In this document: positions 15,418-18,279 of the stretch, in pieces
Layout of the letters: each line of letters begins with the position of its first letter
How positions within the stretch are numbered: position 1 is the first letter of the stretch
From: Lama guanicoe
Lineage: Eukaryota
Assembly (NCBI GenBank): GCA_013239625.1
Contig: MU053559.1
Coordinates: forward strand, 1,116,001 to 1,180,000
Direction of reading: 5' to 3'
Length of the DNA: 64,000 nucleotides
Made by a program: the position numbers and the translations under genes
The notes under the pieces: generated by a model
What the model saw: only the letters and a program-made list of their open reading frames with translations
Database searches by the model: none
Told to the model about the DNA's origin: nothing

Positions 15418-15709
15418 ACTGCCTACACCCTATGACCCATCGTTGCCACTTCTAGATTTAAACACTAAGCACAGAAACGATACAAACATCTTTCACTAGG
15501 GGAATGGAGAGAGAAATAAATAAACCAGACCTATATTTATCAACATGGATAGATTTTGGAAAGGTAACATTTTATGAAAAAAAGCAAGCCTCATGACTTT
15601 AAAAACAATATGATGTAAAGGATTTAAAGGAAATACAGCATTATATATTGCAGACTTCACATTATACAGAAAAAACTTAGGGTGGATTAAAATCGTAAAT
15701 GTTGAAAGT

Positions 15710-18191
15710 TAGGAGCCGGAAGTGAGCCCGCACTTCCGGTGTCTGGAGCAGGATGGCGTCCATGGCCGGGTGAGCCGGGCGGCCAGCGGGGCGGGGGGCG
15801 GGCGCGGCGGTGGGCATTTATATTGCACCTACTGCACGCGTGGGGGGGGGAGTGGCCAGGGGCCGGCCCCAGGTCTCCAGGCCGAAAGGGGGCTCAGGGG
15901 CCCAGCTCGTCTAGGCCCGGACGCGGTCAGCCCCAGCTAGGTGACTAGGTGAGAACTGCCAACGTGAAGTAAACAGTTGGCCAAGGCTCCAGAGGAGCAA
16001 CGGTCAGACAGAGAGCTGGAGAGGGCCTTGGAAAGGCGCAGGTGAGGTGGGCTCTGCAGGTGGAGGGCCTTGGAACGAGGAGGGGGCAAGGGAGGTGGGC
16101 GCCGCAGGCCCGAAGCCTGTGGCACGGGTTTCCGAGAACGGGGAGGCCGATGGGGCTGAATCCACGACACGGGATGGGGCTGGAGGTCAGCTGCCCAAAT
16201 GGGGCGGATTTGGGGTGTGTATCTCCACTCTCCGCCCCTCCACCCACCTCTGGAATTAGTTCTGACGCCCAGGACCACTCCATGCCCTCTCCCCTTGAGA
16301 CTCCTTAAGGCTTTTGAAAGCATCGATTCCTGATAACATTGCCTCCAAATCTCATCAGCAGGCTTTTGTACTGAAGGAACTTCAGCCTGGAGCCACAGGG
16401 ATAGTGATAGTTGTTTTGTTTTGTTTTGTTTTGTTTTCATCAGAAAATGGATATAGAGCTTACTTTGTAGGGTGCTTCTGAGAGTTACATGAAAGGAGGT
16501 GTGGATAGCTCATGGCAGTTGATAAACTGTTTAAAAACCCCACTTTTCCACAGAGACTTGGAAATTGCCCTTCAATTACACACAGGTTGAGGTCGATTTT
16601 ATTAAGAATTGTGACAGTTGGGTCAGACCCTGTGCTAGCCGCCGAAGTCATGGAACTAAGCGAGGCAAGGACCTGTCCTCCTGGGGTTTTGTCCAAGTCT
16701 TTCAGAGCCCAGTGAAACTTTGTATCACGTCCTTGAAGCTGGTGTGGGCTTCTCTTCAGCATCAAAGGTTCCACACCGCTGGGAGTTGCGACAAGGGTCA
16801 CACTGGCGCTTAGCATCTGTGGCTGACACAACATTTGAAGGGCTGGTTTGTGAAGGCTGTGAAGGCTGTGAAGGCGGAGAATTATTGGTGTCGAAGCACC
16901 TTGCAGCTCTTGGAGCTGAATTAAAGGCACCAGAGCCTGCGGCCAGGCCTCCGAGTGTTAGACTGTAGGCGGCTCCTGGCATGGCACAGATCCCAGTGCT
17001 CCTGTTGGCTTCGTGCTTGGGGAAGATCTTCACATATTACCCCTGGAAGGAGCAACTTTTCTGTGCCCTGCTGATGTGACTGACCCAAGAACTGTCCAGA
17101 GAACTCGAGAACTGCTTCCCAGTAGGAGAGCAGATGTGATTCTTAATGACACAGCACCCAATGCCACCAAGACCCAGAGGCTCGGCCATGACAGGCTCAT
17201 TAGCCTGTGATGGCCCTTTCTGGCTCCAGACATCCTGCATCCTGGGGGAACATTCCTTTGTAAAACTTAGGCTGGAAGTCAAAGCCATTGGTTACAGAAG
17301 AGACTGGCAGAGGAGTTTCAGAACAGAAGGGCTATAAAACCTGAAGCCAGCTGGAAAGAATCATCAGAGATATACCCCTTGGCCACGCAGTATCAAAGAG
17401 GGAAAGGGGGCCGGTCTGTGAAGGACTGAGCTGCTTCTGCCATTTCTGATGCTTTTTCACTGCAAATGTAGCCTCCTGAGCTCTTTTCTGAATTGTGGCT
17501 GGGGAGACACACCCTAGGTTGATCCGGGATGCAGAAGGCAGGACAAATAGGGGTCCTTTTTTTTTTTCTTAAGCCAAAAAGATATGACAAAACTATATTC
17601 AGTGGCCACCACACGTGATAAAAAAAAAAGTCTCCATAACATGATTTGTGAAGAGTAAATTATGGTGAGAAAGAGACAGGCAAAGATAAAAGGATGAAAA
17701 GACAGACTGAGGGAAGGATAAAAACAAACACCCTGAGGGAGAGAAACATACACACAGACACCTAGTATGTAACTTTCTTATTTTACCCACTGTTAGTATA
17801 TTAGAGAAACGGGTTTCCATCATTGCTCCAAAAACACAACCCACAGGTTTCCAGGTATTATTTTGATTGTACAGTATAATGTAGAAAAATCTGAAATTTC
17901 CACCTGGGGATTTATTTCCTCCCTCTGGCGAATGATCTGGAAGTACATCCATTCTTCAAGCAGTGAGAGTTCCCAGAGCAATTAAGTATGAATTGGTATG
18001 AATTATGCATGGAGTGGTTGTGCTTTGTTATTCCCGCTGGAAATGTTACTGTAATACTCCAGGCTCCAAAGACTTGACTTAAAGGTAATTGCCAAAGCAA
18101 GCAGCAACACGTTGTGTTCTTTTAGTTCCTCTTTCAGGAACTCAAAGCAGCTTTATAAAACCATATAGATTGCATTACTATAAGAGAAAAA
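15710..18191 (+). pseudogene. MRM2: MRM2 (FTSJ2) retrocopy, semi-processed, disabled
   Basis: Translation 16729-17429 follows MRM2: [104 protein letters not shown]. It carries stops (TAG 16811) and frameshifts. ATGGCCGG|GTGAGC at 15762-15775. TSD AAATGTT(G/C)AAAGT at 15697-15709 and 18192-18204, with an A-tail remnant before the right copy. Confidence 0.92.
15712..16270 (+). promoter_or_regulatory. CpG/GC-rich segment carried in by the MRM2 retrocopy
   Basis: High GC with many CpGs. Inverted ETS/GABPA pair CCGGAAGT (15716-15723) and ACTTCCGG (15732-15739); GC boxes at ~15787-15803. Confidence 0.6.
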
Positions 18192-18279
18192 AAATGTTCA
18201 AAGTAAAACCTTCACTTTAGAGAAGGGTATAGGAGATTATTATCACCTTGAAACTAACACCAAAACATAAAACCTCAGT

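Follow-up and report, generated by a model that had tools for sequence, protein, structure and literature searches.

A segment of the 64-kb window (the whole stretch of Lama guanicoe DNA that was analysed), running from 15697 to 18204 on the plus strand, is an RNA-type copy of MRM2 (FTSJ2): its target site is duplicated, it ends in an A-tail, and intron 2 has been lost exactly. It also contains 959 nt of intron 1. The copy probably derives from an MRM2 RNA spliced at an alternative donor inside intron 1, a non-coding product whose genomic copy is now dead. It would thus be an ordinary pseudogene that preserves the trace of an old, minor splice form.

In the proposed course of events, the parental transcript would have read through the normal exon 1 donor, and a donor farther downstream (homologous to 16728) would have been spliced to the normal exon 2 acceptor. 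Equivalently, a sub-intron at 15770-16705 would have been kept ahead of a 23-nt cassette. The RNA, with intron 2 removed and a poly(A) tail added, would have been copied by the L1 machinery into A-rich, probably L1-derived germ-line DNA. Such an RNA would have been unable to make MRM2 even at birth, its first ATG being followed by a stop after three codons. Stops, frameshifts, a deletion and a change from CAG to CAC at the exon end would represent later decay.

Anatomy of the insertion and state of the coding part

The insert is bounded by 13-bp direct repeats at 15697..15709 and 18192..18204 (plus strand), which differ by one mismatch; of 300 randomly placed search boxes of comparable size, one contained such a pair. 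Its length is within the range of L1 products given in the accessible part of PMC9435743. The A-rich tail remnant, short and decayed, lies at about 18181-18191, approximately 25 nt past a TATAAA at 18154. The 3′ end of the insert contains no AATAAA, only this variant signal. A target-site duplication of 5 to 20 nt, an A-tail after a (variant) signal, exact intron loss and a disabled CDS are among the features by which L1-mediated processed pseudogenes are recognized, and these four are found here. The preliminary description had proposed an insertion with flanking repeats and an A-tail, which the repeat and the tail remnant confirm. Its further claim of an RNA-derived copy with L1-type hallmarks and no intron 2 is borne out by these two features together with the join of exons 2 and 3. 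No second copy of the insert is found within the 64-kb window.

Exon 1, assigned to 15710..15769 (plus strand) from read-through peptides and motifs, comprises the 5′ leader and ATG GCC GG (15762-15769). Two peptides that read through the parental sequence, P0467 and P0099, begin to align at 15712-15714, 3 to 5 nt inward of the left repeat, and none of the four tested read-in peptides aligns in the left flank. The GC-rich leader precedes ATGGCCGG|GTGAGC (15762-15775), which is followed by 959 nt and then by TTTGTATCAC|GTCCTTGAAG at 16728/16729. Two inverted motifs in the leader, at 15716 and 15732, are of what we take to be the ETS type.

The rest of the insert, also on the plus strand, consists of a decayed exon 2 (16729..16989), the coding part of exon 3 joined to it (16990..17429), and a presumed 3′ UTR with the tail remnant (17430..18191). 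A tblastn search with the camel MRM2 protein (P0001) returns two blocks, residues 6-79 in exon 2 (67.5% identity) and residues 98-243 in exon 3 (76.7%); compared with camel MRM2 over 213 aligned residues, identity is 77%. In the PDB, a piece of the insert matches human MRM2 (E value of 9e-33), and Camelus MRM2 is the top one of 89 database matches. The parent gene is mammalian MRM2/FTSJ2 (PDB 2nyu and 7o9k; Camelus P0001, Vicugna P0092; Pfam PF01728). In contrast to the MRM2 protein, the copy has stops (four in the aligned parts) and frameshifts, lacks residues 85-97 beside the GAAPG motif, and yields no protein. A 9-nt tandem triplication is present near 16845-16884. The coding sequence had been described as continuous through GTDPS, which is not so: exon 2 has lost approximately 13 codons (about 37 nt, corresponding to camel residues 85-97), which leaves just 7 nt of the exon between the deletion and the junction.

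The first ATG runs into TGA after three codons, and none of the eight ATGs of the kept 959 nt is open to the junction; from these starts, the source RNA would therefore have been unproductive. A functional retrogene was considered and rejected on the early stop after the first ATG.

At 16989/16990, the junction of exons 2 and 3 reads GGCACAG|ATCCC (GGC ACA G|AT CCC, encoding G-T-D), and intron 2 sequence is absent. Among 364 proteins with the motif at the end of exon 2, 81 diverge directly past it, representing read-through into intron 2, and in 35 of 292 proteins exon 3 is entered from other sequence, representing read-through out of it; the sequence at the ends of intron 2 differs from the join in the window. 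The junction and the protein counts confirm the earlier placement of an intron near GT/D that is missing from the copy. The intron at chr7:2235564-2239418 is presumably intron 2 of MRM2. An MRM2 intron is given at these coordinates in the available part of 10.1101/2020.10.21.349019, and human MRM2 has three exons according to the accessible text of PMC9917222.

An assembly artefact or chimera is ruled out by 14 DNA read sets (6 studies, 5 organisms; one set is possibly from the source sample), which contain 0.79 to 0.91 of the sampled words. The intron-like part makes up 38% of the insert length and must therefore also be present in these 14 sets. Six RNA or possible-RNA read sets contain 0.11 to 0.25 of the words, which is not counted as transcription.

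Two observations concern other MRM2-like sequences. The hippopotamus has a second full-length MRM2-like protein (P0268, P0269), encoded on a separate contig and possibly representing an independent retrocopy. The camel MRM2 cluster also includes four short unrelated open reading frames, P0093 to P0096, apparently through noise in the clustering.

Intron 1 sequence and its downstream end

Predicted MRM2 isoforms whose N termini translate intron sequence were back-translated to DNA and used as a proxy for the parental locus. The set of 476 proteins includes 303 with exon 2, which provide 94 distinct extensions; the 90 that are at least 9 residues long were aligned to 15710-16728 and scored as z values against shuffles, with a threshold of at least 4. 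This threshold is reached by 23 of the 90 extensions, some of them from predictions without shown RNA support, and 22 of the 23 fall inside 15770-16728 in colinear order. The extension of camel isoform X1 aligns at 15837-15941 with a z score of 15.6, and the region 15786-16035 is tiled by rhino (z score of 10.3), horse, cats, bats and an open reading frame of the mustelid cluster. A walrus extension follows at 16034-16138, and whale extensions score 18.6 and 13.4 at 16513-16587. A tamarin model at 16621-16658 (3.3) stays below the threshold, and the segments 16142-16331 and 16352-16512 have no scored tile among the 90 extensions. A scan for exon ends finds 14 peptides above the control maxima at nine positions, four of which precede GT in the window. 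An earlier comparison at the protein level was weak, with 5 of 30 extensions at p values of at most 0.015; three of the five matched the minus strand, probably by chance.

Judged by these back-translated predictions, the 959 nt at 15770..16728 (plus strand) are the 5′ part of parental intron 1. They begin at the normal donor GTGAGC, left unused, and include further unused parental donors at 15872, 15925, 15940 and 16585. The preliminary description held that intron 1 was retained. This holds as far as the identity of the 959 nt is concerned, given the 22 tiles in order, but not as far as the whole intron is concerned, as its conserved 3′ end is absent.

A separate observation is that mammalian MRM2 models use many donors spread over the 5′ part of intron 1 (those matching 15872, 15925, 15940, 16140, 16585 and 16659), so that a loose choice of donor seems to be general in this part of the gene.

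The acceptor end of intron 1 is represented by 24 extensions from non-camelid proxies, sorted by eye, of which the 11 longest were tested. All 11 of these read-through peptides score between -1.1 and 0.7 against the window, whereas each has a partner in another species at a z score of at least 7.4 (the horse peptide, for example, scores 7 to 15 against bats and 4.9 against deer). In nine open reading frames, a start of the acceptor type is followed by all of exon 2 and then by intron 2 sequence, and this class must therefore be the genomic neighbor of exon 2. Deer, peccary, horse, bats and carnivores share this conserved acceptor region, which is absent from the window. On these proxies, the copy keeps parental intron sequence but not an intron that runs from its donor to its own acceptor; a sub-intron at 15770-16705 does run from GT to AG if the 23-nt piece that follows is a cassette.

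TTTGTATCAC is most likely an exon end that preceded an alternative donor, not a decayed acceptor. As an acceptor, the junction at 16728 would be poor, with 10 pyrimidines in 20 positions and AG at -23 and -18. The exon ends of two horse models, P0265 (isoform X1) and P0008, read QSPVIVPSR; the window reads QSPVKLCIT in the same frame and equally far from exon 2. An SLSE run, 1 nt off register, is common to the window and sloth X2 (P0004). Four-residue in-register runs from two unrelated lineages, as scored at the junction, occur at 3 of 8,472 control anchors. The horse has both an acceptor-type protein (P0273) and alternative-type ones (P0265 and P0008); P0273 reads the acceptor, and the QSPV exon of the horse must therefore be spliced. 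P0008 splices from the 15940 donor to an exon of 23 nt, and the window has 23 nt (16706..16728, plus strand) between TTTCAG (16700-16705) and exon 2, in agreement with this micro-exon in length and register; its boundaries were read by hand from P0008, P0006 and the window sequence.

Taken singly, the junction matches are weak, with the sloth at rank 4, the horse at rank 2 and bat P0368 at rank 7 of 969 anchors and with scores of 7 to 13 bits, whereas the controls reach maxima of 16.9 and 17.7. Jointly, three peptides chosen after the match was seen score 24.1. By the same method, the horse and sloth exon ends score 1.0 bit and do not match each other. Among 12 longer-protein candidates found with the frame from the kept stretch into exon 2, no camelid isoform ends at 16728. 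A simple donor score, calculated from base frequencies, does not usefully separate the sites. A metagenome scan with an exon 2 alignment found no mammalian MRM2 locus: the best 80 of 116 confirmed loci show 45 to 63% identity, and we take them to be bacterial RlmE-type relatives.

The final CAC had been described as a mutated intron 1 acceptor, which is probably wrong, as the conserved acceptor region is missing and the junction matches an alternative exon end. The suggestion that CAC caused the retention is rejected: these would be the last exon bases before a donor and therefore cannot have that effect.

The same break could have arisen if all of intron 1 was retained and its distal part disappeared later, through a deletion or a jump of the reverse transcriptase between short look-alike ends, given that the exon-like end and the acceptor both terminate in ...CAG. 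The copy does have deletions, such as the loss of about 37 nt from exon 2, and carnivore acceptor ends are also similar to the last 8 nt before 16729 (P0329, 8.5 bits, rank 4). This course of events nevertheless appears quite unlikely, since it requires a 5′ break that coincides by accident with the horse and sloth exon end and a 3′ break exactly where exon 2 begins, whereas splicing accounts for both at no extra cost.

Complete retention of a short camelid intron of only about 960 nt, with its acceptor at the junction and now reading CAC, would fit a stretch that opens with a donor and has last bases one change away from CAG, and the acceptor proxies come from non-camelids. It would require, however, that camelids alone had lost the acceptor region shared by the deer, peccary, horse, bat and carnivore proxies, a loss that must predate an insertion itself older than most camelid changes. 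With the weak pyrimidine tract and two upstream AGs added, this reading is distinctly improbable. A DNA-level event (genomic duplication of MRM2 with later loss, or partial gene conversion of a processed copy by the parental locus) could account for the intron sequence and the part of the CpG island present but is very hard to credit in view of the target-site duplication, the A-tail, the exact exon 2/3 join, and homology that begins 3 to 5 nt inward of the left repeat with none in the left flank.

Age and genomic surroundings

Splicing at the alternative donor, the preferred reading, would belong to an old event. The type of C-terminal tail that the copy has is found in 12 of 12 artiodactyl rows and in none of the 13 others, and its tail is identical to those of camel and alpaca; one extra base upstream of the tail shifts the frame. 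At eight informative camelid-specific sites, the copy has the ancestral residue in six and the camelid residue in two. The protein tree leaves its position unresolved. The insertion probably occurred after the artiodactyl change at the C terminus and before most of the camelid-specific replacements, on the early camelid stem, which would make it tens of millions of years old. As a fixed old insertion, it might serve as a marker of the camelid stem.

The region 15710-16230 is still a CpG island (GC content of 0.68, observed/expected ratio of 0.64, 35 CpG). Only one other region of the 64 kb is island-like, and the germ line may leave 15710-16230 unmethylated. In the coding part, CpG has decayed (0.27), and 6 of 12 conserved arginines have become Q, W or H.

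The insertion had earlier been placed in an old L1 element. The flanks are A-rich on both sides (44 to 47% A), and one frame is open across the reconstructed empty site, in agreement with that placement; the naming of L1 found no support, as searches of PDB, Pfam, representative proteins and the Atlas gave no relevant match. The flanks are probably L1-derived DNA. On the left, a GC-richer block at 14790-15420 interrupts the A-rich flank and is probably another old mobile element. The right flank contains a tRNA-like SINE at 18278-18417, which has about a dozen relatives in the window with 77 to 90% identity, six of them called as tRNA genes. Farther right, the minus strand encodes a C2H2 zinc finger array (18935-20033) with 11 motifs in an open frame of 346 codons. 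Its 3′ end is approximately 0.8 kb from the tail of the retrocopy and is oriented towards it, and the retrocopy may lie antisense in or near the 3′ UTR of this zinc finger gene.

Comparison with known systems

Retrocopies have reportedly been treated as fossils of alternative splice forms by Shemesh et al. in 2006. What is said here of the cited papers holds for the accessible parts of their texts. Semi-processed pseudogenes are an established class (PMC4151081), and surveys of retrocopies allow for occasional retained introns (PMC2584115, PMC5470649, 10.1101/2020.06.07.139212). The class as such is not new: retrocopies that are only partly processed have been described, and so have retrocopies that record splice variants. 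In the openly accessible literature covered, there is no account of a camelid MRM2 retrocopy or of a donor of the 16728 type; MRM2 and FTSJ2 are absent from the searchable supplements of PMC13408128.

In rodent preproinsulin I and the TMF1 insertion in CYBB, an intron is either complete or contains the end of the copy (PMC4151081), whereas the stretch kept here most likely ends at an alternative donor and is spliced on to exon 2. Preproinsulin I is also alive, whereas the MRM2 copy is dead. Like retrocopies with an inherited promoter or CpG island (PMC4772013), the MRM2 copy keeps a CpG-rich 5′ region that is still island-like. Of the expressed retrocopies in that source, about 3% have an inherited promoter.

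These data point to a specific candidate alternative donor in intron 1 of MRM2 that is seemingly common to distant mammals. They also add a caution: a retrocopy may contain intron sequence although no intron was retained, and what looks like a "broken acceptor" may be the end of an exon. Read in the window sequence, the 23-nt piece places a TGA in frame a few codons past exon 1. A bolder proposal, unlikely to hold as a whole, is that the donor and the frameshifting 23-nt micro-exon are conserved across placentals (horse, sloth, bat and the camelid stem) and would serve in an unproductive splice of the poison type, through which the amount of this mitoribosome assembly factor is adjusted. If so, the retrocopy would prove, with a date, that germ cells produced this form tens of millions of years ago, and the surviving CpG island might still act as a promoter beside the zinc finger gene. 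A site that feeds an unproductive form would be relevant to how MRM2, which is mutated in mitochondrial disease, is regulated. In humans, an alternative first exon of MRM2 is annotated (PMC13478751).

A parallel comes from MIR302CHG, where retrocopies were used to find splice forms (PMC7692494). As in that system, an old copy appears to reveal a splice site outside the main mRNA. In contrast to it, the MRM2 copy concerns another gene, one that codes for protein; its 5′ part extends far into intron 1, and its first ATG already leads to no product.
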